Source: a phage
Direction: 5' to 3' (one strand)
NCBI GenBank assembly: GCA_024614665.1
Contig: GCA_024614665.1_4861.1
Length of the DNA stretch: 64,000 nt
Below, piece by piece: positions 2,673 through 60,892 of this stretch. Position numbers and translations under genes: made by a program. Every line of letters starts with the position of its first letter. Position 1 is the first letter of the stretch. A model generated the notes under the pieces. That model did not search any database. It was not told where the DNA came from and worked only from the letters and a program-made list of their open reading frames with translations.

Positions 2673-2698
2673 CTCACCTAAGTAATATATATCTGAAA
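2673..2698 (-). promoter_or_regulatory. class-1 promoter-like motif (mRNA sense TTTCAGATATATATTACTTAGGTGAG)
   Basis: One of at least 5 near-identical copies, each about 50-70 nt upstream of a gene start and followed by the conserved leader. Confidence 0.55.
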
Positions 2699-4107: not shown

Positions 4108-4428
4108 TTAAAATCCATTGCGACCTCCCTGTGCGATGTATAACGCACATTTCGCATTGAGTGCTTCGATATTAGCGATAAGTATCATCACCCCGCCGAG
4201 TGTGCGCGGTACGCGAACTGCTTCGTATTCACGCCCTTGCGTCCGGACACAATATTCATCGCCCAGGAACGCGATTTCGTAATACTCAGCACGTAACGGT
4301 ACAAATGACTGTAGCAACATATCTGCGGTTTGATAGTCGTCAGTCAGTTTCCCGCCCTCGAGTAAATATTTCTGAATCTCGTGAATAGTCAGTCCCCGTA
4401 ATGAAATAGACACCGGCTTCTCCTTCAT
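4108..4428 (-). CDS. hypothetical protein, about 100-106 aa
   Basis: ORF; conserved leader element AATCGACCAT and AAGGAG lie at the start region (ATG 4428 or in-frame GTG 4410), inside the 3' end of the upstream gene. Confidence 0.5.
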   Translation of the reverse strand: MKEKPVSISLRGLTIHEIQKYLLEGGKLTDDYQTADMLLQSFVPLRAEYYEIAFLGDEYCVRTQGREYEAVRVPRTLGGVMILIANIEALNAKCALYIAQGGRNGF

Positions 4429-6376: not shown

Positions 6377-6709
6377 CTACCCATTAACCACCCCCAAACC
6401 ATTTACAATGGATGTTGCGGGGGCATCCAGGTTATTCATCCATAACGACAGTTTGTTCATCTTCGTCGCGGTTTCAGGACTAGGGTTATTGCGCAAGTCA
6501 CTTAAAGCCATCGCAAACTGGGTTGCCAGGATTTGACTGCCGTAGAAAGCGTTACGGCTTACAGGCAGCGCCTCGAAGCGTGCATCGAAATTGTTTGCTT
6601 GGTTAAGTTCTTTAACGGTGCTCAGAATGGCTTCCTGCATTCGAAGTTCGCCGTCGCCTTCAAGGTCAGTTGCCTGACGCAATACCGCAATGTGATAGAC
6701 TTTGGACAT
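6377..6709 (-). CDS. hypothetical protein, 110 aa
   Basis: ORF downstream of class-2 promoter-like motif; TTAAGGAG SD. Confidence 0.6.
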   Translation of the reverse strand: MSKVYHIAVLRQATDLEGDGELRMQEAILSTVKELNQANNFDARFEALPVSRNAFYGSQILATQFAMALSDLRNNPSPETATKMNKLSLWMNNLDAPATSIVNGLGVVNG

Positions 6710-6782
6710 TTTAATTGCTCCTTAATACATGACATAAGCTCTGATTGAAACGTAAATTTCAGAGGTTCACTGAGATAACATC

Positions 6783-6800
6783 TATCTGAAATAAAATAAA
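6783..6800 (-). promoter_or_regulatory. class-2 promoter-like motif (mRNA sense TTTCAGATAGATGTTATC)
   Basis: Related to class 1 (AGATA.AT.TTA.C) but without the conserved leader; upstream of 6377..6709. Confidence 0.45.
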
Positions 6801-6814
6801 GCGTACCAGCCACC

Positions 6815-6838
6815 CCGAAGGATAGCTGGTATACACTT
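6815..6838 (-). terminator. UUCG-loop hairpin terminator
   Basis: Hairpin after the stop of the 1005-aa gene, followed by U-rich tract and a class-2 promoter. Confidence 0.55.
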
Positions 6839-15136: not shown

Positions 15137-15163
15137 CCCTACCTAACCGAAGTTAGGTAGGGG
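15137..15163 (-). terminator. UUCG-loop hairpin terminator
   Basis: CCCTACCTAAC-CGAA-GTTAGGTAGGG then U-rich tract; downstream of 15169..15474. Confidence 0.65.
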
Positions 15164-15168
15164 ACTAT

Positions 15169-15474
15169 TTAAGCGACAACGCGTTTGCGTTTATCGACGA
15201 CTTTCTTGGTTGCTTTCGCTACCTTCTTAGCGGCAGGGATGGTATCAACCGGGGTGTCGGCTACCAAGGCACGTTCTACGCCGTCTGCGCGTAGAACACG
15301 CAGATTCTTCGCCTGTGGTAAACCTTTGAAAGTGATGGTCAAACCCGCGCGGAGACCTTGATACAGAAACCCTTGCAGGTTCAGTTTCTTGGCGGTTGTG
15401 GTGTCCTCACAACCTTTCTCCACGTACAGCAGAGTTGTACCTGCACGTTTAACAATAGTGTATTGCTTAGCCAT
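15169..15474 (-). CDS. small basic protein, 101 aa, possible nucleic-acid-binding
   Basis: Stand-alone gene between class-2 promoter motif and strong hairpin/U-tract terminator; Lys-rich C-terminus. Confidence 0.6.
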   Translation of the reverse strand: MAKQYTIVKRAGTTLLYVEKGCEDTTTAKKLNLQGFLYQGLRAGLTITFKGLPQAKNLRVLRADGVERALVADTPVDTIPAAKKVAKATKKVVDKRKRVVA

Positions 15475-15509
15475 CTACTTTTTCCTTTCTTTACAGTTAG
15501 GTTCAGTAA

Positions 15510-15528
15510 AATAACATCTATCTGAAAA
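15510..15528 (-). promoter_or_regulatory. class-2 promoter-like motif
   Basis: mRNA sense TTTTCAGATAGATGTTATT; upstream of small basic protein gene. Confidence 0.45.
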
Positions 15529-15566
15529 GTCGTGCGTTAAACCACCAACTCTAAGCGCACATACTA

Positions 15567-15884
15567 TCAGTGGGGTTTAGGCTCGACGTGAAGCTGCCCT
15601 GGGGTATACGCGGTACCTTTTTCATTGGTTGTGTTAGCAACGCACCACATCCACTGTTTAGTTTCTTTGTCTTGCCAAGAAAACAAGATAGAACCCTCGC
15701 GGATTTCAGACGCATCAACTTCGGGATGGAATAACATGAATTCGTTTTCATCGTTGTCCACCACGACATACTGTCCTTCTTCCATACGGTCGAAGTTAGC
15801 GACACCAACGGTAATCGGTTCCGCATCGACAGAAAGAGTCACTTCACGTTTTGGCAGGTCACGATGAATAGCACTTAACCACAT
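15567..15884 (-). CDS. hypothetical acidic protein, 105 aa
   Basis: ORF track. Confidence 0.5.
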   Translation of the reverse strand: MWLSAIHRDLPKREVTLSVDAEPITVGVANFDRMEEGQYVVVDNDENEFMLFHPEVDASEIREGSILFSWQDKETKQWMWCVANTTNEKGTAYTPGQLHVEPKPH

Positions 15885-15954
15885 TCTCTTAATTCCTCAT
15901 TACGTGGGTTGTTTCACATAAGTTAGTGGACTGATGTAAATAAAAAGGGACCCC

Positions 15955-15972
15955 CTTACCCATGGGCAAGGA
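15955..15972 (-). terminator. hairpin terminator
   Basis: Imperfect stem CCTTACCC/GGCAAGG followed by U-rich tract; downstream of 15981..16463. Confidence 0.4.
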
Positions 15973-15980
15973 GGTAGACC

Positions 15981-16463
15981 TTACAGTTGGTTTTCTTCGC
16001 GGTCGTCTGTCAGGACAGCAGCACAGATAAAGCGTGCGAGTTTCAATTTCGCAGCTGCAGTCTCCTCTGCAGATGGATTCGGGTCAACCGGCGCAGCCAA
16101 ATCGACGTCTGCCAGCTCTTCCGCGTATTTCTCAGCAGCTTCATCGAAGCCTGCACGGATACCTGCCAAAAGGTCTTGTACTTCATCGCTTGGCACAGGA
16201 CCATCGATAAGAATCTTCTGAGCGTCAGACGGTTCCACATCAGCAAAGTTCATTTCGTTTAACATGCCAATGCGTTCTGCGTTAGAGGTGATGAGTTGTG
16301 CCAACAGTTTTTCAAAACGGTTGATATGTTCATCGTCCAACGGTTGACCGGTCAGTAGCTCGTAGTAGCGGGCCATAAGTGTGTTCGCGTCGGCCCCTTC
16401 CTCATGACGCACGCCTAAATCAAAATCGTGCTGAGGGAGCTGACCTAATTCGATCATATCCAT
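15981..16463 (-). CDS. strongly acidic protein, about 160 aa
   Basis: ORF; ATG at 16461-16463 with GAGG SD; very high Asp/Glu content. Confidence 0.55.
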   Translation of the reverse strand: MDMIELGQLPQHDFDLGVRHEEGADANTLMARYYELLTGQPLDDEHINRFEKLLAQLITSNAERIGMLNEMNFADVEPSDAQKILIDGPVPSDEVQDLLAGIRAGFDEAAEKYAEELADVDLAAPVDPNPSAEETAAAKLKLARFICAAVLTDDREENQL

Positions 16464-16503
16464 AGTTAACCTCAACGGTGTTTAAGGGTCATACAATGGC
16501 GAA

Positions 16504-16782
16504 TTACGCCGTTACCGGAACAGGGGTGATTAACAGCTCCCCTTCCACCTCACGTAACTGATAACCGTGCATAACGTTGTAGGATTTAATGCCGTCGCGT
16601 TGTTTGGCTTTCGCGACGAGTTTTTCCAACACGCGACTATGTGCACGCGTCATCTCTTCTTTCGAATAAACAACTTGGAGTACGTGCTGTTCGTCAATAA
16701 CGGCACGGAACTGCATTACATCACCGTCTTCAACGTTGTAAACGACTTCTTTAGACTTCGACACTGTACGATTAATTTGCAT
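16504..16782 (-). CDS. hypothetical protein, about 92 aa
   Basis: ORF; ATG at 16780-16782 with GGAG SD. Confidence 0.5.
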   Translation of the reverse strand: MQINRTVSKSKEVVYNVEDGDVMQFRAVIDEQHVLQVVYSKEEMTRAHSRVLEKLVAKAKQRDGIKSYNVMHGYQLREVEGELLITPVPVTA

Positions 16783-17584
16783 TATTTTCTCCATTAGTAG
16801 TTTTCAGGGCACGTCCGTACACATAACTTTCGGGTAGCCAACCGTTTTCTAATAACCACATTGCGGCTGGCCCCCCAGTATATTGGTGGTAAGTGTAAAC
16901 TAATTCATCCCCCACCGGTAATTCAGACTGGATACAGTGCATCAACAGTCCGAACTCCTCTCGAGTTAGAGCAACCACCCCTTCTGCGGTAAACCATCCA
17001 CCAATAACCCATCGATGCCCACGGTGCGAAAGCACTGTCAACTTGTAGCTATCAGCGTTTCGCCACGACATCAGCCTCCCGCCCGTAACGAGCGTTGAGT
17101 AGATAGAGCTTGTACCGTAAAGCATCCTAACCCAATCCAAGAACGCTTTCTTACTATCGAACAACGAACTGACATCCCCACAGAAATCCTCATCGTGGCT
17201 AGGCACCGATGAATTAATTTTGCGATAGTTTACCGTTTCGCAACAAAAGCCCATGCGTCCATATTCGTCCCCCTCCGAACGAGTAAAATGCATCGCGTAG
17301 TTACACCCCGCTGAACGGAGTAAAGCATCCGCAAGCGAGGTTAACTGGGCGTCTAAAGCACGAACCATGTTGATAACTTCTAACATGTATCCGTGGTCCA
17401 GACAGAGCACGATCGCGTCTGGCGCAACTGTGTCCCGACTGAACACTTCAAAGATTCGGTAATAAAGACGACGTTCATCTTGTAACGTGGAAGGATCGAT
17501 ATCATTTAACAACGATAACGCCTTACGGTCTTCCAACCACGTTCGGTCCAGAATCCTCTCCGTGCGTTCGATAACTCTCAGCAT
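16772..17584 (-). CDS. hypothetical protein, 270 aa
   Basis: ORF track. Confidence 0.55.
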   Translation of the reverse strand: MLRVIERTERILDRTWLEDRKALSLLNDIDPSTLQDERRLYYRIFEVFSRDTVAPDAIVLCLDHGYMLEVINMVRALDAQLTSLADALLRSAGCNYAMHFTRSEGDEYGRMGFCCETVNYRKINSSVPSHDEDFCGDVSSLFDSKKAFLDWVRMLYGTSSIYSTLVTGGRLMSWRNADSYKLTVLSHRGHRWVIGGWFTAEGVVALTREEFGLLMHCIQSELPVGDELVYTYHQYTGGPAAMWLLENGWLPESYVYGRALKTTNGENNAN

Positions 17585-17593
17585 ATTCTCTCC

Positions 17594-18397
17594 TTACGCA
17601 AGGGTGTAATGATGCGTGATTACACGATACTCCAACCCTTCGATAGAAGGAAGCTCGTGCTCTATCGCAACACCCATGTTGACCTTTTTACCTTTCTGTC
17701 CCGCCAAATGCAAAATAGCGTGGTAGTGTTTTAGAAACTCTACCGAGTAAGCAACCGGGTCAAAAGTTTGGCAGCAGAATTGCTCAGTAATGATACTCTT
17801 CGGGAATTCCTTATAAAGCATTAATGAGAACGGTTTCTGGCCGTGCAGCCCCACAAACGCAGAGACAAAACCATTTGCTAACTCGCCCAACATCTCTCGC
17901 GTTCCTGCGTCTTTTAGCGTAGGTCGCATCAGATAGCAAATATCTTGGGTTTGTTCTAATGACAATGTCTCCAACGGGACAACTGATGGGTCTGACGTAA
18001 AACCGTATTTCGGACTAACAGTAATCTCCACACGTTTCGTTACAGCTTCGAACCCCAGACGCTGGTATAGTGCTGCGTGTTCGGTGTCGTGCGGGAAACA
18101 GGTAATATCAAGCATCTGCACTTCCAGGAGTCGCGTTAAACGCTTCCACTCGTGGAACAGGGGCTCGGAGAGCACGTGCAGCTCGTAGATGTAGTAAACA
18201 ATACCTGAACGACATCCACGAAAATACATTTGCGCACGACCGCTATTGCTCAACACTAACCAATGATCGTCTTCTTGGTCTGCGACGGGTCGCAAATCTT
18301 GAATCCGTTCGCGGAGTTGCCCCAAGGTGGTCAATCGACCACTAAACTCTACGGTCAGGTCATTTTTGTCCATACCGTATAGATTAAATAGTTGCAT
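17594..18397 (-). CDS. hypothetical protein, 267 aa; weak GNAT-like C-terminal motif
   Basis: ORF track; HAALYQRLGFEAV resembles a GNAT motif but the match is weak. Confidence 0.5.
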   Translation of the reverse strand: MQLFNLYGMDKNDLTVEFSGRLTTLGQLRERIQDLRPVADQEDDHWLVLSNSGRAQMYFRGCRSGIVYYIYELHVLSEPLFHEWKRLTRLLEVQMLDITCFPHDTEHAALYQRLGFEAVTKRVEITVSPKYGFTSDPSVVPLETLSLEQTQDICYLMRPTLKDAGTREMLGELANGFVSAFVGLHGQKPFSLMLYKEFPKSIITEQFCCQTFDPVAYSVEFLKHYHAILHLAGQKGKKVNMGVAIEHELPSIEGLEYRVITHHYTLA

Positions 18398-21399: not shown

Positions 21400-21765
21400 C
21401 TACATCACTGCAGAAGGTTTACGTGCCATGACTTTAAGTCCCGTATCTCGTACCCGGATAGGACAATTATTCATGTAATCAATGCAGGATTCTATTTTGA
21501 AGCTGTGTCGACATTTACCGTTGATGGAACGGTAAACGATTTCGTAATTCAGGCGCAGTGTGTCGGCAACACGCATCAGAGTTTCGATAGTTACGGCTTT
21601 CTCACGTTCATTTTTAATCGCAGAGATTTGTGACGGTGAGCAGCCTACTAATAACGCGATGTCTTTCTGCGTAACGTCCTTCGCAGTAACACGCGTAATA
21701 ATGTAAGAAAGACGAACCAAAAACGTTTTCTTTGCCAACACAACGGCTTGATGTTTAAAACGCAT
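21400..21765 (-). CDS. helix-turn-helix DNA-binding protein (XRE-like), 121 aa
   Basis: QKDIALLVGCSPSQISAIKN resembles an HTH; first gene after class-1 promoter and conserved leader. Confidence 0.55.
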   Translation of the reverse strand: MRFKHQAVVLAKKTFLVRLSYIITRVTAKDVTQKDIALLVGCSPSQISAIKNEREKAVTIETLMRVADTLRLNYEIVYRSINGKCRHSFKIESCIDYMNNCPIRVRDTGLKVMARKPSAVM

Positions 21766-21814
21766 TAGAATACTCCTTTAGATTAATAGTCGATTAGAGA
21801 GTTTAACGACAACT

Positions 21815-21840
21815 CTCACTAAGGTAATATATATCTGAAA
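21815..21840 (-). promoter_or_regulatory. class-1 promoter-like motif
   Basis: Plus-strand CTCACTAAGGTAATATATATCTGAAA; upstream of HTH gene. Confidence 0.55.
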
Positions 21841-22627: not shown

Positions 22628-22648
22628 GGCACTCCGAAGAGCGCCCAA
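22628..22648 (-). terminator. UUCG-loop hairpin
   Basis: GGGCACTC-CGAA-GAGCGCCC (imperfect stem) downstream of 22654..23268. Confidence 0.4.
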
Positions 22649-22653
22649 TAAAC

Positions 22654-23268
22654 TCACTTCACAAGCAGTATCTGCTTGCCAGCGATCCGTACCTCATCCC
22701 AGTTTAGATGTCTTGCAGCTGCACTAACTAAATCAACGCAGTTTGCCTCAGCAATCCAATCTTGACAAACACTCCGAATGAATTCAGGCTGCAGTAGAGC
22801 CATTGGCGTTGACTCTGAATAATCCTCTGGGGAGGGAATACGTGCAAAGTCCACCATCTGCTCCAGTTTACGAAGTTGTGTATGGAAGCGATAATAAAGA
22901 GTTTCTGTATGGCTTTCGCCGTTCTCTTCAACGAGAGTAATATTGATTGCGATACCAGTACGAGTATAGTCGTTTTTATCAACTTTGTACGTGGATGCGC
23001 TTAAGTTATAACCAAAGAACTTTATACCTACCTCGGCGTCAAACTCATCGTTGAGAATTTCGGTATACATATTGCTCAATTCGTGGGTACACGGACGAAC
23101 GTCGTAATAGTCGTCGCCTTCGAAAGGTGCGTATTGTGTATCTGGTAGAAGATTATTAAAAATCCAGTTTGGTAAACGTTGACGAAACTCTTCAGCAATC
23201 TTACGACGTTCGTCTGAATCGGTAGTGGTTGAGAGTGCAATGGCCGCGTCTACAATATTAGTAATCAT
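22654..23268 (-). CDS. hypothetical protein, 204 aa
   Basis: ORF downstream of class-1 promoter and conserved leader. Confidence 0.6.
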   Translation of the reverse strand: MITNIVDAAIALSTTTDSDERRKIAEEFRQRLPNWIFNNLLPDTQYAPFEGDDYYDVRPCTHELSNMYTEILNDEFDAEVGIKFFGYNLSASTYKVDKNDYTRTGIAINITLVEENGESHTETLYYRFHTQLRKLEQMVDFARIPSPEDYSESTPMALLQPEFIRSVCQDWIAEANCVDLVSAAARHLNWDEVRIAGKQILLVK

Positions 23269-23309
23269 AGTGAGTTCCTTAATGGTCGATTAAAAGAATA
23301 GGTCGTAGT

Positions 23310-23336
23310 CTCACTAAAGTAATATATATCTGAAAA
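23310..23336 (-). promoter_or_regulatory. class-1 promoter-like motif
   Basis: Plus-strand TCTCACTAAAGTAATATATATCTGAAA; directly after a terminator hairpin. Confidence 0.55.
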
Positions 23337-40330: not shown

Positions 40331-42109
40331 TTAGCGGCCGATTTTAGCAATGTCTTCTTCGGTCGGTCTGATGTACGGGTCCAGTTTAGGATTCCGCATC
40401 ATTACCAAACTTGGGTTGGTCTTCATGTACGGGTTGAGGATGTTTGCCTTAAACGGTGCCGACTTAGGAATATAGTAGACGTTACCGCATTCCAGATGCG
40501 ACGCGGATGCGTGCTTAGTACGGTCGTTCAAGTTAACGGTCTTGCCTCCTTTCTTCGAACGCTTAGCATCGGTTTCGGTTTGACCGATGGCGTGCGTAGA
40601 CACTGCCAATACCATTGATTCTGTAGAGGCATTGAAGAAACTGATACCGCCGTTGCTCGTAATGGTGCGCATCACCAGATTGAGCACGATCTGTTTGTTC
40701 AGTGCGTCTCGAATAGACTTCGCCGCTGTCTCTGGAGTCCGATGTTCCAACTGCCCCAGCTTCCAACGTATTTTCGAGATCGTTGTGGTAAAGCCACGTT
40801 GACCCAACAGTAGGTAATCGGTTACCGTGAGACGTTTTCCGTACATAGACGGAATATCATCTTGCTTGGTAAGTCGAGTGCGTACCATCAGCTGCGTGGT
40901 ATACCAGAGGAAATCAAACATATCCAAATCATCAGGGATGGACGGATCGTTTGCCATCAGCTCACCACGGAAGGTGCTGTTGACATAGCGTTCACATTCC
41001 TGGAAGTGGCTGTCCATACTGCGACTCAGTTCGATATCCGAAGGCTTCAGTCCGCGAATACTGCGGCCCAACACTTCACGCCAAGACGCTGCAGAGTTGA
41101 GGTTTGCAATATCTTCGTCCATTGCCATTTCATTAATCTGTGTAAACAGCCCCGGTAGTGTTGGTGCACGACCGTTCTTACTGTTCTGTTTACCTGCGTA
41201 GTAGTGCGCTGCTTTGAAGAACGCAGCAGTCGCTACCAGCAACAGATGTTCGTTTTGATCCCAACGCCCTGCATCGGTGTTAGGCATATCTTCACGTTTA
41301 ACCAACAATACGTACTGGATGGTCTTCGCGAGTTGTGGCTCACCAGATTGAATCACCACATACTTCGTTAAGTCCACATCACGCACTTTAATCGCTGGCC
41401 AAATCGCCACATCAACGCCCGCATAACGCTTCACGGCTTGTTTAAAGCCATAACGCCCAAAGAGCCAATACATCAGTGGCTTCTCATCTGTGTCGTGTCC
41501 AATCTGTCCAGTGGAGACAAACAGATTCGATGTACCCGGCAAGAACAGCTGCTCAGGGCGACCATTCACCAGAATCTTCGTTGGTTTCTTACAGAACTTG
41601 ATAGACACCTTGCGAGTGAAGTCAAAGTTAATAAAGATACCGCCGTGCTCACGACATATACCAGGTTGATGGATTACAGGTGCTACGTGGTACGTTGTAC
41701 CATAGTAGTTCATTAAGCCGCCACGACGAATAAACGGCAGGCTCATTGGTCGTTGCACCGGGCGAGGATCACCTGGAACTCGGAACGAGGCCATTACCAT
41801 ATACGTGTCAGTGGATGAGATGTTAATAATTGACCGGCCACGATTATTTCGTGAATTGTTATCCGACTTCGATAACTTAAAGATAAAAGCTTCAAACGGC
41901 GACATTTGGCGACAACCTAATACCGTTAACCCTTCTGGTAATTTCGGGTTATCGATTTCATCATACGTCAACTCACGACGTAGAATGGTTGCCACACGAT
42001 CATGTATCCCATCTTTAGCTTGTGTGTACCCAACTCCTTCTGCAATTGCACGATTAAAAGGCACTATTTCGCCTGCCTCTTTAATCTTCCTAATCGCATC
42101 TTTAAACAC
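40331..42109 (-). CDS. large hypothetical protein, 592 aa
   Basis: Long ORF track. Confidence 0.6.
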   Translation of the reverse strand: MFKDAIRKIKEAGEIVPFNRAIAEGVGYTQAKDGIHDRVATILRRELTYDEIDNPKLPEGLTVLGCRQMSPFEAFIFKLSKSDNNSRNNRGRSIINISSTDTYMVMASFRVPGDPRPVQRPMSLPFIRRGGLMNYYGTTYHVAPVIHQPGICREHGGIFINFDFTRKVSIKFCKKPTKILVNGRPEQLFLPGTSNLFVSTGQIGHDTDEKPLMYWLFGRYGFKQAVKRYAGVDVAIWPAIKVRDVDLTKYVVIQSGEPQLAKTIQYVLLVKREDMPNTDAGRWDQNEHLLLVATAAFFKAAHYYAGKQNSKNGRAPTLPGLFTQINEMAMDEDIANLNSAASWREVLGRSIRGLKPSDIELSRSMDSHFQECERYVNSTFRGELMANDPSIPDDLDMFDFLWYTTQLMVRTRLTKQDDIPSMYGKRLTVTDYLLLGQRGFTTTISKIRWKLGQLEHRTPETAAKSIRDALNKQIVLNLVMRTITSNGGISFFNASTESMVLAVSTHAIGQTETDAKRSKKGGKTVNLNDRTKHASASHLECGNVYYIPKSAPFKANILNPYMKTNPSLVMMRNPKLDPYIRPTEEDIAKIGR

Positions 42110-42120
42110 ACCGGCCTCCC

Positions 42121-43125
42121 TCAGAGAATCATCCCAACGAGTGCTACCCCTGCAGCCAAATACGCGGGAATGGATTTCAAGAACTCCGAGCTATCTTTTC
42201 GCTGATAAGCTCGGGACTCGTATTGGTCTTTACGAACATCGGAACGCAACTTAAGCTCATTCGTCTGGATTGCGTTAAGGGTGTTAATCCTCTCCTTCTC
42301 CAGCGCCAGATTATTAAGTTGCGTACGATAATCGAGGTCTTGCCGATTCTTTTTCTCATCGAGATCTTGCAACTTGGCCTGATACGTGGCTTCCAGCTTC
42401 GCACGAACATCTCGCAACTCTGGAATGTTATCGAGCCACCGATAACGCCTCGCTTCTTCTTCAGATGCAAACGCCCGGAACGGGGACATCGGGTCATCGA
42501 AAGCGTACATTATCATTTTACCCCCTTCGACACACTCCGCACCACCGATTACCATGTAAATACCCTCGTCGTAATACTTCGATCGAATCGGTTCGACTTC
42601 CAACATCGTTGTATAGAACCTCAGCCACTTTAAAGGTGCTGGGTCTTCGTACTTCTGCACAACTACCACGCCCAAGGCAAATTCTTTACGATCCCCTCCT
42701 GGCTTACCAATAACCTCAGAATCGAGTTTTACTGGTTGAGTAGAGAAAGCCATTCCTAGCTTTTTCAACACCACCAAGTCGCCTCGCATTAACGCACCGA
42801 TATCATCAACTACATACATCAGCGTTGTTTCGCCGTTCGTAGTTAATTCCTTACATATCTGCGCATACTGCTTTGGCGAATGTGCGTCGCGCAAACCAGA
42901 TAGGTTAGCACCGTTCGCAAACACCGTATAGGTCACGTAAATCACAATCCCAAATTCCGCCGCTGTGGTGGACGACGGGGCTAAAACAAAATGCCCGCCA
43001 CTGAGTTCAGTGACGTAAATGGGAAACCCGGTATTATTTTCGTACGTGATAGTCTTCGACACGGCACCACGGTGCATGGGCCGCTGGGTTAGCGTTGGCT
43101 GAACGTCTAAATCATAACGGTTCAT
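42121..43125 (-). CDS. protein with coiled-coil region and C-terminal TM anchor, about 335 aa
   Basis: ATG at 43123-43125; C-terminal IPAYLAAGVALVGMIL; downstream of class-2 promoter motif. Confidence 0.55.
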   Translation of the reverse strand: MNRYDLDVQPTLTQRPMHRGAVSKTITYENNTGFPIYVTELSGGHFVLAPSSTTAAEFGIVIYVTYTVFANGANLSGLRDAHSPKQYAQICKELTTNGETTLMYVVDDIGALMRGDLVVLKKLGMAFSTQPVKLDSEVIGKPGGDRKEFALGVVVVQKYEDPAPLKWLRFYTTMLEVEPIRSKYYDEGIYMVIGGAECVEGGKMIMYAFDDPMSPFRAFASEEEARRYRWLDNIPELRDVRAKLEATYQAKLQDLDEKKNRQDLDYRTQLNNLALEKERINTLNAIQTNELKLRSDVRKDQYESRAYQRKDSSEFLKSIPAYLAAGVALVGMIL

Positions 43126-43166
43126 TGAGCATCCCAGTAATAATACCAAAAGAATTATTCACGTAG

Positions 43167-43183
43167 ATAATATCTATCTCAGA
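43167..43183 (-). promoter_or_regulatory. class-2 promoter-like motif
   Basis: mRNA sense CTGAGATAGATATTATC; upstream of 42121..43125. Confidence 0.4.
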
Positions 43184-43191
43184 TTACTTTG

Positions 43192-43216
43192 GGCACGGGT
43201 TCATACCCAGTGCCCG
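43192..43216 (-). terminator. hairpin (imperfect)
   Basis: GGGCACGGGT...ACCCAGTGCCC downstream of 43231..43929. Confidence 0.35.
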
Positions 43217-43230
43217 TAACGTAAAAAACT

Positions 43231-43929
43231 TTAGGGTATTAGGCGTTGGGCTATTTCGCGGAGTTGGTCGCGGGTTAAATCAGCCAACTTCTGGTCGCCG
43301 AAGCCCAACTTCAGACCCAGCTCGTACCCAGCTTGCGGATACGTGTTCGTGTTTGCTACTGAGAGGAGTGCATCGGCTATCTTTACCATCGTTAACTCGA
43401 GAGACGCATACGGGGCGGGGATCGGCTGATTCACGATTTGGTAATTATAACGCACTGCGGCGTTATCGTAGTCAAACTCCATCCTTCTGCCGAGAACGTT
43501 AAACGACTCCGCAGAATAACTACCAAATGGGTGATTGGCTTTTTCCCACAAATCTTTCCGTTCAGTAAACCCAGTCGCGAAGTTCTGACGTATGGTGTCG
43601 AATATTTGCGTTGCCTGGCTAGGGTGTATATTTTTCAGCTCATTGTAGTCGTAGTCGGCGATGGAATATAGAGTGAACACAACACCGTTTATATTTAACT
43701 GCGGATAATCCATCCGCAGACTGTCATCACCTTGTAAATGAAGTTCCCACATCCTTACCCACTGCAATATCGCGCTTACCGCATCGTGACTGAGATAAAA
43801 ATTAGTAGGTTCTTCAGGATTTTCACGGAAGGGAACAGAGCATTCCGATACAAAAAAGCCGGCTGCCATAAATCCTCTGCCGTCGAACATAGGCGCAACT
43901 AATCTTGATTTTTCTAAATTGATTACCAT
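43231..43929 (-). CDS. hypothetical protein, 232 aa
   Basis: ORF with TTAAGGAG SD; downstream of class-2 promoter motif. Confidence 0.6.
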   Translation of the reverse strand: MVINLEKSRLVAPMFDGRGFMAAGFFVSECSVPFRENPEEPTNFYLSHDAVSAILQWVRMWELHLQGDDSLRMDYPQLNINGVVFTLYSIADYDYNELKNIHPSQATQIFDTIRQNFATGFTERKDLWEKANHPFGSYSAESFNVLGRRMEFDYDNAAVRYNYQIVNQPIPAPYASLELTMVKIADALLSVANTNTYPQAGYELGLKLGFGDQKLADLTRDQLREIAQRLIP

Positions 43930-43970
43930 TACTGTCTCCTTAAGTTAAAACCGAACGACTCTCTCCCTAA

Positions 43971-43989
43971 GATAATATCTATCTATAAA
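43971..43989 (-). promoter_or_regulatory. class-2 promoter-like motif
   Basis: mRNA sense TTTATAGATAGATATTATC; upstream of 43231..43929. Confidence 0.4.
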
Positions 43990-44006
43990 TTTTTAGAAAA
44001 AAAGAA

Positions 44007-44030
44007 AAAGCTTACTCCCCGAAGGGAGTA
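44007..44030 (-). terminator. UUCG-loop hairpin terminator
   Basis: GCTTACTCCC-CGAA-GGGAGTAAGC with U-run; downstream of the 766-aa gene. Confidence 0.65.
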
Positions 44031-44064
44031 AGCTAATCTTAGGCAACGTAATCCTTACGGATTA

Positions 44065-50984: not shown

Positions 50985-51034
50985 GGCAATACTCCTTTAG
51001 ATTAATAGTCGATTGAGTTGATAGATTGTCTTCT

Positions 51035-51060
51035 ATCACCTAGGTAATATATATCTGAAA
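51035..51060 (-). promoter_or_regulatory. class-1 promoter-like motif
   Basis: Plus-strand ATCACCTAGGTAATATATATCTGAAA; upstream of small membrane gene. Confidence 0.55.
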
Positions 51061-56805: not shown

Positions 56806-56826
56806 AAAGGGAGCCGAAACTCCCTT
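56806..56826 (-). terminator. hairpin terminator
   Basis: AAGGGAG-CCGAAA-CTCCCTT then U8 on the minus strand; downstream of 56833..57162. Confidence 0.55.
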
Positions 56827-56832
56827 CGTGTT

Positions 56833-58676: not shown

Positions 58677-58726
58677 TATAAATACTCCTTAAGATTAATG
58701 GTCGATTACATACGGTTTCAGGCTAA

Positions 58727-58739: not shown

Positions 58740-59496
58740 CTGCTGGTTCTTCAGCGGTTTTCACTTCAACTGGTTTCATCAGCGAGTTCGCACAGTCGAA
58801 GATAGCATCCAGGAAACCACGGAACGGCTTCATGGCTTCACGCTGGGCGTTCTGACGTTCTTCTTCAATTGCTTCTTCTTGCGCCTGAATTTCTTCAGCA
58901 GTCAGCTCCGGGTGTTCCGTCATGCTTTCTGCCAGGGTCATCACTTTCGGCTGCGCATTCCGAATCGGAATACGGCGGATGACCTTGGTGATATTCCCGA
59001 GCTTCATGCCACCCAGCGCGGTTTCGAACAGCGTACCGAAATCTTGCAGTGGGTCTTCGCTGATTTCCAGTACCGCCGGAGTCGCAACCAGACCAAAGGC
59101 AATGACCAATTCAACAGCAGTGTCAGTGACGTGCACAGCGAACGGGGTGTCTTCCATCTGCAGGTAATTGTTACCATTATAGGTCACCGGAATGAATTTG
59201 ATTTCTTCCCCTTTCTTCAGGCGCAGTGTGTCGACTGCGGCTTTGTACTGAACTTCGTACAGTTCCGGTTTAACACCGTCAACGTTATCCAGTGTAAAGA
59301 GCAGGTCGCCAACCGCCATACGGCGCGGCAGTTTGCGTTTGTTGATTTCGCGCAGCCAGACTTGTAAGCCGGTGAATTGAATTGGGGACAGTATAATTTT
59401 AAAGCCGTTGGTTGCTTGCAGGATAGCACCGTCGTCTTCGCTACGTTCGATAGAGCCATTAGCCAGAGTAAGCAGATTGATAGTTTTCATTTTCAT
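58735..59496 (-). CDS. hypothetical protein, 253 aa
   Basis: Downstream of class-1 promoter motif and leader. Confidence 0.6.
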   Translation of the reverse strand: MKMKTINLLTLANGSIERSEDDGAILQATNGFKIILSPIQFTGLQVWLREINKRKLPRRMAVGDLLFTLDNVDGVKPELYEVQYKAAVDTLRLKKGEEIKFIPVTYNGNNYLQMEDTPFAVHVTDTAVELVIAFGLVATPAVLEISEDPLQDFGTLFETALGGMKLGNITKVIRRIPIRNAQPKVMTLAESMTEHPELTAEEIQAQEEAIEEERQNAQREAMKPFRGFLDAIFDCANSLMKPVEVKTAEEPAA

Positions 59497-59537
59497 ATTC
59501 CTTAAGTGATAGTCGGTTAAAAGATTACCAATGCAAT

Positions 59538-59563
59538 CTCACCTAGGTAATATATATCTGAAA
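59538..59563 (-). promoter_or_regulatory. class-1 promoter-like motif
   Basis: Plus-strand CTCACCTAGGTAATATATATCTGAAA; upstream of 58735..59496. Confidence 0.55.
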
Positions 59564-59598
59564 TCTTTTCTAATCTGAGACAAAAAAAGAAAGGGTAA

Positions 59599-59620
59599 AT
59601 CCCCCACCGAAGTGGGGGAT
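59599..59620 (-). terminator. UUCG-loop hairpin terminator
   Basis: ATCCCCCAC-CGAA-GTGGGGGAT then U-rich tract; downstream of paralog B, followed by class-1 promoter. Confidence 0.6.
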
Positions 59621-59632
59621 TCGCCAGTCTAA

Positions 59633-60892
59633 TTACTTAGACTTTTCGTACGCACCGATACCGGCGCTGATGTAGCCGTTAACGCCGGCGATCAGGTTTT
59701 TCTGGCCAGTTGCAACGCAACGTTCGGTCCAGGAGATGTACTGGTTCGCAACGGTGATTGCACGACGTGCAACACGGACGTTGGAAGTCAGTTCAGCGTT
59801 GTCGTCGATCTTCACGCCGTCGATACGTTTCAGCAGCGCCTCAATAGCCCGCTCGTACGATTCTTGAGCCTGGTTATTTTTGTGGTACGCTTTCACGTTC
59901 TCTTCGACTGCTTTACCCAGCTGGTTGAAGAACGCAACCAGAGAAGACAGCGTCTGAGCAGACGGAGTAGAAACAGATTTTTCTACGCTGCCTTCAGCAT
60001 CGATAACGGTGAAGGAAGCTTCCAGGTCATCCCCGTTCACTTTCACGTCAGCTTTACCGATCTGGTTACCCAGCAGTTGAACTTCGCCCGCTTTGCCTGC
60101 AGTGGCTTTGTTAACCGCTGCTGCGAAGCCGCTGTTCAGTTTCCCGCCTTCAACTGCGCTGACCATGCTGGTTGCAGCTTTGACCACTGCATCCTGCTCG
60201 CCGTAGATGCTGCCGATAGTAGACAGAACACCTTTCAGGACGTTGATGTCGTTACCGACGAACTTACCACCGGTGGTCAGGTTCTTAATGAACCCACCGC
60301 TAACGGTGTCTTTCTTCTGCTTGCCCAGGCCACGCAGAGCCGCGTCATATTTCTTAGCGCGCGCCTGAATGGATTTACCCTGGTTGCTGAACTTGAGCCA
60401 GCGATCTTTGATTTTACGGCCTTGTTCTTTCAGCCAGTCGAAGATACGCTGCAGGAACGCTTTGATGTCGTCCCACAGTGATTCACGAGCAACCTGACGG
60501 CGTTTACGTGCGCCGTAAGATTCCTGCGCAACGCTTACGCGGTGATCGAATGCCCAACGTTTACGGATAGATTCCTGCGCAACGTCCAGCTGCTCAGCAG
60601 CTTCGTCAGGCATATCTTCTTCCACTTCCATTGGCTCTTCGCCATCTTCGCCTTCGCCGTCAGCAGCGGCTTCAGCAGCATCAACTGCATCCAGCTGTGC
60701 ATCAGTTTCGTCACCGTCTTCTGCCAGCACGTCTGCTTCTGCGTCCAGCTGGTCGATCGGTTTGGTGTCATGCTCGATGTCGGCCAGGGTACCTTCCACG
60801 GACTCAGCCGGCAGCTCGATGCCATCTGGAACGACAGTGCCTGCGCCTTCGACAGATTCACGAGCGAGTTTACTTTTTACAAAGTTAGCCAT
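59633..60892 (-). CDS. paralog B of tandem pair, 419 aa; acidic N-terminal third, Lys-rich middle; putative abundant virion or scaffold-like protein
   Basis: First 15 residues (MANFVKSKLARESVE) and C-terminal GIGAYEKSK identical to 60970..62247; strong codon bias. Confidence 0.6.
   Translation of the reverse strand: MANFVKSKLARESVEGAGTVVPDGIELPAESVEGTLADIEHDTKPIDQLDAEADVLAEDGDETDAQLDAVDAAEAAADGEGEDGEEPMEVEEDMPDEAAEQLDVAQESIRKRWAFDHRVSVAQESYGARKRRQVARESLWDDIKAFLQRIFDWLKEQGRKIKDRWLKFSNQGKSIQARAKKYDAALRGLGKQKKDTVSGGFIKNLTTGGKFVGNDINVLKGVLSTIGSIYGEQDAVVKAATSMVSAVEGGKLNSGFAAAVNKATAGKAGEVQLLGNQIGKADVKVNGDDLEASFTVIDAEGSVEKSVSTPSAQTLSSLVAFFNQLGKAVEENVKAYHKNNQAQESYERAIEALLKRIDGVKIDDNAELTSNVRVARRAITVANQYISWTERCVATGQKNLIAGVNGYISAGIGAYEKSK

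Follow-up and report, generated by a model that had tools for sequence, protein, structure and literature searches.

Background

Every jumbo phage that encodes its own RNA polymerase (RNAP) has, according to a published review, a detectable AT-rich motif of ~10 nt near position -10 before its presumed early operons, and wherever this motif has been tested it proved to be an early promoter read by the virion polymerase (PMC7598289). Here we describe four copies of a motif with an AT-rich core, referred to as class 2, in a 64,000-nucleotide stretch of phage DNA (NCBI GenBank assembly GCA_024614665.1, contig GCA_024614665.1_4861.1; the whole stretch is called the window below). A preliminary description of the window regarded these copies as a second promoter subclass, which shares a skeleton with a first group of sites (class 1) but lacks the conserved leader of that group, and suggested that they may mark a different temporal class or polymerase specificity.

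The early consensus of phage AR9, AAATATATATTAT-(6N)-G, has been mapped by differential RNA sequencing (dRNA-seq), and its use is independent of protein synthesis (PMC5312081). Consensus sequences of other phages have been tabulated (PMC7058600, Table 2), comprising the predicted ones of N1M2 (TBYAWWWWWTTTCARRYAKATATTATYWAAGTGWA) and OBP (BSHAWWWWWTTTYARRYAKATATTATYWWADTG) as well as those of 201phi2-1 (...TTTRARR_BTATATTACDWHDGTG) and phiKZ (TATATTAC). The middle promoter of phiKZ is characterized by the tetranucleotide TACT, located ~22 nt upstream of the start and preceded by an A-rich run (PMC8244752). The genes of the non-virion RNAP (nvRNAP) of both phiKZ and AR9 are early and are transcribed by the injected virion RNAP (vRNAP).

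In megablast, the first 20 kb of the window align end to end, at 98% identity, with both Enterobacteria phage SEGD1 and Salmonella phage SPN3US, and a whole-window alignment revealed that the window is the reverse complement of positions 51855-117108 of SPN3US (~65 kb; NC_027402), with three indels. SPN3US is a nucleus-forming jumbo phage of the genus Seoulvirus (Chimalliviridae), and it possesses two multisubunit RNAPs: a vRNAP composed of gp42, gp218, gp240, gp241 and gp244, and an nvRNAP that includes gp35 and gp77 (PMC5105663). The review cited above implies that the SPN3US motif has probably already been derived by Lavysh et al. 2016 (PMC7598289). The comparisons reported here also involve the Erwinia phage Asesino, whose genes shared with SPN3US are ~74% identical, and the more distant Cronobacter phage CR5.

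Results and discussion

The four class-2 sites are conserved intergenic elements

The analysis presented below makes it likely that SPN3US-like phages use class 2 as their generic early promoter, read by the injected vRNAP, and that class 1 is a specialized promoter of the same family combined with a module in the 5' untranslated region (5' UTR). From homology and gene logic we infer where +1 lies, which polymerase reads the sites and that they act early.

All four copies are present in the window and all of them are on the minus strand, which the preliminary description had left unstated. Three of the intervals given there are correct, but the first one listed, 6783-6800, is shifted by ~9 nt upstream and overlaps the core only in part; the proposed TTATC end does not apply to the copy at 15510, which terminates in TTATT. 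The skeleton common with class 1 has six matches in the window against 0.02 expected, and the exact sequence AGATAGATRTTAT has four against 0.01 expected. The fixed differences between the classes, counted along a 13-nt core (13-mer), concern position 6 (G in class 2, T in class 1), position 13 (T versus C) and position 9 (A or G versus A), and none of the four class-2 sites is followed by a TAATCGACCATTA-like box.

Promoter 1 (6768..6802, minus strand) comprises an upstream A/T element, the 15-nt core AGATAGATGTTATCT at 6773-6787 and a predicted +1 G at 6768; in its orthologs at SPN3US 109893 and Asesino 111656 the core is kept and the flanks have diverged. Promoter 2 (15504..15538, minus strand) has the core AGATAGATGTTATTT at 15509-15523 and a predicted +1 G at 15504, and its orthologs at SPN3US 100815 and Asesino 101959 likewise have G at position 9. 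The core AGATAGATATTATCT is common to promoter 3 (43160..43194, minus strand; core 43165-43179, predicted +1 G at 43160), which heads an operon with the nvRNAP beta N-terminal subunit and has orthologs at SPN3US 72684, Asesino 74900 and CR5 69787, and to promoter 4 (43965..43999, minus strand; core 43970-43984, predicted +1 G at 43965), with orthologs at SPN3US 72486 and Asesino 73981.

A census with a 45-column position matrix built from the SPN3US sites returned exactly nine window sites, each of them on the minus strand. The four of class 2 begin at 43984, 43179, 15523 and 6787, and the five of class 1 at 59559, 51056, 23331, 21836 and 2694. Independently, the published OBP consensus with up to three mismatches retrieved exactly the same nine sites, with 0.01 expected and no false matches; the class-2 sites deviate from it in 2, 2, 3 and 2 of 24 positions. 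When up to four mismatches are allowed, the SPN3US genome contains 20 matches to the OBP consensus, every one on the gene strand, compared with 0-1 in shuffled genomes. A search of the window with the 201phi2-1 consensus, on the other hand, yields the five class-1 sites and no others.

According to a greedy cover with open reading frames (ORFs), 92.8% of the window is coding and 7.2% non-coding, and all nine cores of both classes fall in the latter. For class 2, this placement upstream of genes and not inside them (4/4 cores) has p ~2.7e-5. Each class-2 site is co-oriented with the next gene and located 30-59 nt upstream of its minus-strand start codon. Among 15 orthologous pairs of sites from SPN3US and Asesino, the 15-nt core is 94.7% identical as compared to 44-54% in the ungapped flanks, which shows purifying selection on the cores. 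The four class-2 sites are non-random, intergenic and co-oriented, with selectively maintained cores that match a published consensus. In IMG/VR the exact 15-mer AGATAGATATTATCT occurs in the known jumbo phages, and the other matches listed are mostly single ones on short contigs, presumably due to chance.

Class 2 resembles early promoters of OBP, N1M2 and AR9

Comparison of the consensus sequences shows that class 2 (cAAAAnnnnTTTC-AGATAGATRTTATYT-nnGTGA) is of the OBP/N1M2/AR9 flavour, and class 1 (TATATATTACYTWGGTGAGA) of the phiKZ/201phi2-1 flavour. With OBP and N1M2 the agreement is near-identity over ~30 nt, including the A/T-rich upstream tract, TTTC, ARRYAKATATTATY and the following GTG, and the N1M2 motif also precedes the genes for an RNA polymerase beta subunit and a transglycosylase, like class 2 of SPN3US. 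However, OBP and N1M2 have one consensus each, whereas an SPN3US-like genome carries the TATATTAC flavour as well; besides, these two phages belong to a distant clade and infect other hosts, and their motifs are predicted, as are ours. AR9 shares with class 2 the register of the 13-mer, the T in its last position, and the six unspecified bases followed by a G, which has been mapped as +1 in AR9. It differs in position 6 (T, as opposed to G in class 2) and positions 1-2 (AA, as opposed to AG), and also in having a uracil-containing genome, no nucleus and a Bacillus host. In phiKZ and 201phi2-1 there is likewise an A-tract, TTTGAGAT, an AT-rich core and six arbitrary bases before a G, an arrangement experimentally supported in phiKZ, but the C in the last position of the core makes them the counterparts of class 1 and not of class 2.

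The G seven bases after the 13-mer (position 20) was found in 50 of 50 sites of SPN3US, Asesino and CR5, at the same spacing in both classes. As this invariant G fits both the AR9 start and the phiKZ layout, we took it for the +1 of the four promoters listed above. The middle motif of phiKZ is absent from the class-2 sites, which at the corresponding place read TTTC, TCTG or TTAT, and whose conserved core is located at -19 to -5.

In phiKZ, the gene of the nuclear-shell protein ChmA (PHIKZ054) and the gp68 gene are preceded by ...TTTGAGATTTATATTAC-6N-G, which is the C flavour (aaaaaaatttgagatTTATATTAC-6N-G), and Wicke et al. tie the primary start of PHIKZ054 to the early motif. The early ChmA gene is thus under a C-type site in phiKZ but under a T-type site in SPN3US, so that one gene is served by either flavour depending on the lineage.

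Genome-wide distribution and gene context

In SPN3US we found 23 strong sites, all on the gene strand and separated from the background by a wide gap in score. Seven of them have C in position 13 (C13 or C-type: 4427, 56294, 65413, 94239, 113986, 165687 and 223277) and 16 have T (T13 or T-type: 7390, 15614, 15707, 23810, 25226, 28969, 72486, 72684, 92540, 100815, 109893, 161919, 174954, 184044, 191602 and 238181). By these counts class 2 is the majority flavour in SPN3US, where sites of one class alternate irregularly with those of the other.

Two tandem T-type sites of SPN3US, 15614 and 15707, are located directly upstream of ACQ60_gp244 (617 aa) and ACQ60_gp243. These genes are syntenic with gp039 and gp040 of Asesino, and ACQ60_gp244 also with gp54/gp55 of phiKZ. 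The products of Asesino gp039 and gp040 have been identified experimentally as ChmA and the nvRNAP beta'1 subunit (PMC11724907). The identity of ACQ60_gp244 (SPN3US 15768-17618) as ChmA follows from this synteny and not from a sequence match: it has no match in Pfam, and phmmer found no PDB chain, even at E=10. Evidently, the ChmA family is too diverged for a search by sequence only, though chimallin structures exist. The tandem T-type promoters before ChmA, ~90 nt apart, recur in Asesino (16337/16429) and in CR5 (14510/14587), and they recall the two start sites reported for gene 054 of phiKZ.

Another T-type site, SPN3US 28969, is directly upstream of ACQ60_gp232/231, which correspond to the nvRNAP proteins gp34/gp35 in the numbering of the literature. 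SPN3US 72684, equivalent to window position 43179, heads ACQ60_gp190/189/188, i.e. gp76, gp77 and the essential gp78. In the window, the first gene after this promoter (promoter 3) is the gp76 ortholog at 42121..43125 (minus strand; 334 aa, with a hydrophobic C-terminal segment), and it is followed by the gp77 ortholog at 40331..42109 (minus strand), a 592-aa ORF for the N-terminal fragment of nvRNAP beta, whose SPN3US equivalent ACQ60_gp189 (592 aa) is annotated 'polymerase' and whose Asesino ortholog gp94 is annotated as RNA polymerase beta; gp77 was named as an nvRNAP subunit by Thomas 2016 (PMC5105663). The T-type is the only recognizable promoter before the shell gene and the nvRNAP operons in SPN3US, Asesino and CR5, and the SPN3US census revealed no C-type site near the ChmA and nvRNAP genes. 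Upstream of the ChmA and nvRNAP units there are genes on the opposite strand, and upstream of the gp76-gp78 operon there is the major head protein gene, followed in the window by a terminator.

Because T-type sites front the nvRNAP and shell genes, class 2 must be readable before nvRNAP exists, and hence it is most likely read early by vRNAP. The argument from nvRNAP genes to an early promoter is strong but not airtight. A promoter of this kind would extend over ~35 nt and comprise an upstream element that is A-rich and then T-rich (cAAAAnnnnTTTC), followed by an AT-rich core of 13-15 nt (AGATAGATRTTATYT) at about -19 to -5, and initiation would take place at the invariant G seven bases past the 13-mer. 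The two flavours would differ mainly at position 13 (~-7), T versus C, and in this lineage also at position 6 (~-14). Class 2 would then drive the core early genes (nuclear shell, nvRNAP subunits) together with assorted small genes, and the module of class 1, composed of a 5' hairpin, an TAATCGACYATTA box and a ribosome-binding site, would front small accessory genes.

Position 13 and the leader distinguish the two classes

The class-1 promoters used for comparison are located on the minus strand at 2675..2694 (AGATATATATTACTT, 6 N and G, followed by a 5' hairpin and a TAATCGACCATTA box), 21817..21836 (before the gene of a helix-turn-helix protein), 23312..23331 (where SPN3US and Asesino have a class-2-like core and a different downstream gene), 51037..51056 and 59540..59559. 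Their module consists of C13, a 5'-terminal hairpin that begins at +1, and the TAATCGACYATTA box ahead of the ribosome-binding site. It is missing from the four class-2 sites of the window: all have T13, and 0/4 have the box or a +1 hairpin with a minimum free energy (MFE) <= -5. In SPN3US, Asesino and CR5 taken together, the hairpin at +1 accompanies 13 of 14 C13 sites and 5 of 36 T13 sites (Fisher p = 3e-7), and a box of the form (A/T)TCGAC or ACCGAC at +10 to +50 accompanies 9 of 14 and 0 of 36, respectively, both counts including orthologs, so that the sites are not independent.

Comparison with CR5 indicates which of the class-specific bases are general. The family persists in this phage, and T13 is present at 7/7 orthologs of class-2 sites, but T6 occurs in 7/10 T-type sites. 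Position 6 (G/T) was accordingly rejected as a general class determinant. Position 13 together with the leader is all that separates the classes in the three genera, G6 being a habit of one lineage. A few sites are hybrid, namely SPN3US 4427 with G6 and C13, and 238181 with T6 and T13, and at SPN3US 23810 a class-2 core is followed by an CAATCGACTATT box at +2. Such exceptions as 23810 and 238181 show that the parts are separable. Idiosyncratic cores, e.g. GCATAGATATTATCT and AGATTGATATTATC, are also kept between SPN3US and Asesino.

By these data the original assignment holds in both of its elements, namely that the sites are promoters and that they form a subclass of their own lacking the conserved leader: the split is statistically clear, kept between genera, and coupled to the 5' leader. 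The ranking of the two classes is different from what the numbering suggests, in that class 2 is the generic majority form and class 1 the specialized one.

The hairpins predicted for class-1 transcripts at 2621-2675, 21765-21817, 50989-51037 and 59490-59540 (minus strand) are perfect, with stems of 6-9 bp, and begin exactly at the predicted +1. Their stems (GAGAGTT...AACTCTC, GATAG...CTATC, GAGATT...AATCT) vary between paralogs and orthologs without loss of pairing, an apparent case of compensatory change. These hairpins may serve in protection or recognition of the 5' end. One exact TAATCGACCATTA box, at 58696-58708 (minus strand), has the usual ribosome-binding region ATCTTAAGGAGT behind it but lacks a canonical promoter; upstream of it we found GCGTAAATATTACGTTAGCC, only a decayed class-1 core with C at the place of +1. 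Given this copy, the box may be a separable element that acts at the level of RNA or translation and is able to exist without a promoter. Other box-like matches, at 4425, 56320 and 18332, have 1-2 mismatches and may be due to chance, with 1.6 expected.

Alternative interpretations

Several observations speak against class 2 being simply the generic early promoter. In the literature within our reach, we found no transcript data for the SPN3US-like lineage, and in 201phi2-1 the nearest mapped promoter of some nvRNAP genes is of the middle or late type. A perfect class-2 core at SPN3US 25226 falls within the ACQ60_gp236 coding sequence, with ~270 nt left to the gene that follows, and Asesino lacks an equivalent of it; this core may act as a promoter internal to the gene, or else be a chance or young copy. 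Finally, position 13 is kept in 15/15 SPN3US/Asesino pairs and position 6 in 14/15 (the exception being the hybrid 4427), and ~15 class-2 sites depart from class 1 in these two bases alike. If class 2 were just a set of weak copies of a single optimum, such a pattern would be unexpected, and it allows for a functional difference.

One way to accommodate such a difference is to assume that the two flavours of early promoter are stable, non-interchangeable and used differently, with the T-type serving plain constitutive early transcription of core genes (those of the nuclear shell and of the second polymerase among them), and the C-type, together with the hairpin and the TAATCGAC leader, serving a burst of accessory host-takeover genes that is separately timed or controlled post-transcriptionally. 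We regard this as an unlikely scenario. If it were true, the early programme would be sub-structured at the level of promoter and leader, perhaps via a specificity factor that is delivered with the virion or made early, or via an RNA-binding factor.

Slightly less probable still is a separate regulatory class in the stricter sense proposed in the preliminary description, in which class 2 would be read by another form of polymerase (nvRNAP, or vRNAP with a factor) or at another time, e.g. as immediate-early as opposed to delayed-early. Such a class would agree with the preservation of subclass identity at orthologous sites between genera, with the internal uniformity of class 2, which shows no scatter of weak variants, with its tight coupling to the leader type, and with the kinetic differences among early transcripts of AR9, which include a 'pre-early' group (PMC5312081). 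However, nvRNAP cannot be the sole reader of promoters that front its own genes and that of the shell. Class 2 also fits the early consensus of OBP, N1M2 and AR9 and is unlike the middle motif of phiKZ, its spacing and +1 G are those of class 1, its position 6 is not fixed in CR5, and the sites 4427, 238181 and 23810 are hybrid. In view of this match to early promoters, the common spacing to the +1 G, and the ChmA/nvRNAP context, our data lend no support to a distinct timing or polymerase specificity of class 2. A finer difference in timing or strength would be conceivable, though of low probability, given how stably the flavours are kept and how closely they are tied to the leader.

We have also considered that the class-2 core might double as an operator, i.e. 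that the dyad AGATA-N5-TATCT (TACCT in the right arm of class 1) would be bound by a dimeric phage protein that selectively silences or modulates class 2. The dyad is visible, there are weak matches of the matrix on the reverse strand at the same sites, and a candidate helix-turn-helix gene is the first gene of the class-1 unit at 21836. On the other hand, changes in one arm are not matched in the other, so that the symmetry is lost in e.g. AGATAGATGTTATTT and AGACAGATATTATCT. An AT-rich dyad of 5 nt is also weak evidence, and nothing ties the helix-turn-helix protein to the core, all of which makes this function improbable.

Recognition by the host RNAP with sigma-70 would be suggested by TATTAT at -12 to -7 and a G at -14 reminiscent of an extended -10 element, where class 1 has C at -7; given the inferred +1, both class-specific bases (G at -14 and T at -7) shift the core toward the sigma-70 consensus. 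Yet sigma-70 requires A at -11, and half of the four window sites carry G there (TGTTAT); a -35 hexamer is lacking at 16-18 nt, and the conserved upstream element is too near to replace it. Moreover, a consensus scan flags 0/4 cores, with match counts near those of shuffled sequences, and the motif is common to jumbo phages of Pseudomonas, Bacillus and Klebsiella, of which phiKZ develops independently of the host polymerase. Host promoters are thus a very improbable explanation, marginally more so than the operator. As to non-functional repeats, either relics of recombination or chance AT-rich matches, their likelihood is negligible considering the enrichment, strand bias, intergenic placement, the architecture of terminator and promoter, and the cores kept across three genera between diverged flanks.

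If class 2 is the generic vRNAP promoter, as we favour, it is an element of a kind already known, namely the vRNAP early promoter of phiKZ-related phages. What we have not found described in the literature searched are the two flavours in one genome, their retention across genera, the strict coupling of the C flavour with a leader made up of the 5' hairpin and TAATCGAC, and the cassette swap described below, all of which are refinements of a known system. The sites mark probable starts of early units, including those of the shell and of the second polymerase, in a genetic model for nucleus-forming jumbo phages, and the census amounts to ready predictions for 23 sites of SPN3US and nine of the window, each with a predicted +1. 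We know of no promoter-recognition subunit of the virion polymerase in these phages, and two flavours in one genome, differing at ~-7 and ~-14, constitute a natural mutational series for what vRNAP reads.

Possible exchange of genes at promoters

The window site 23331 belongs to class 1, whereas the orthologous sites SPN3US 92540 and Asesino 94430 are class-2-like. At this locus the window and SPN3US are nearly identical upstream, including the terminator, but the class-specific bases, the leader and the gene all differ, the swapped segment comprising 22640-23331 of the window (with a 204-aa gene) and 92540-93432 of SPN3US (with a 252-aa gene). This looks like the exchange of a promoter-leader-gene cassette, with a crossover in the shared upstream part of the promoter. 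The second case is an indel of 647 nt (43239-43886), which comprises most of a 232-aa gene between the tandem class-2 promoters 4 and 3; without it, the promoters in SPN3US are 198 nt apart, and Asesino has a gene (gp92) between them.

Arbiol et al. 2010 are said to have described cassettes of T4-type phages (PeSL), in which an early promoter and a stem-loop flank hypervariable genes. The two cases in the window may be comparable: here, too, the slots whose genes vary among close relatives are flanked by recurring early promoters and terminator hairpins. They differ from PeSL in the promoter family and polymerase, and recombination at the promoters is deduced here from two indels only. Swaps bounded by promoters suggest how these phages exchange accessory early genes.

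A further ~630 nt of SPN3US (59021-59651, with ACQ60_gp206) is missing from the window near 56818-56832, and there is a terminator at the junction (56806-56827).

Genes and terminators around the class-2 sites

The first genes after the four promoters fit the preliminary description, which spoke of a small basic protein (101 aa), a tail-anchored membrane protein (the 334-aa gp76 ortholog with its hydrophobic C-terminus) and two unknowns (110 and 232 aa). None of these four genes has a match in Pfam, and in PHROG they belong to families of unknown function only. The claim that they differ in character from the class-1 genes is weakly true, as the site at 6787 heads a run of ~ten small genes of unknown function, just as class-1 units do.

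Promoter 1 is directly preceded by an intrinsic terminator at 6804..6831 (minus strand; 12-bp stem and TTCG loop), which ends the upstream tail-protein gene. The first gene after it, at 6377..6709 (minus strand), encodes a 110-aa protein with an isoelectric point (pI) of 5.2 (phrog_17751), and the run that it heads extends to a terminator at 2733-2756. Promoter 4 is directly preceded by another intrinsic terminator, at 44009..44034 (minus strand; 11-bp stem, TTCG loop and a T run), located after the major head protein gene, and is followed by the 232-aa gene at 43231..43929 (minus strand; phrog_15414).

The gene after promoter 2, at 15169..15474 (minus strand), encodes a 101-aa protein with pI 10.3 (phrog_12339), and a terminator at 15137..15162 (minus strand) closes the one-gene unit. 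The segment 15137-15538 (minus strand) is thus self-contained, consisting of a promoter, a gene for a very basic protein with a lysine-rich C-terminus, and a strong terminator. Such a layout would be expected for an early protein made in abundance, and one that might bind nucleic acid. On the minus strand of the window as a whole, 16 of 32 terminator-like hairpins have a TTCG tetraloop, often with stems of 9-12 bp, which makes their design strikingly uniform.

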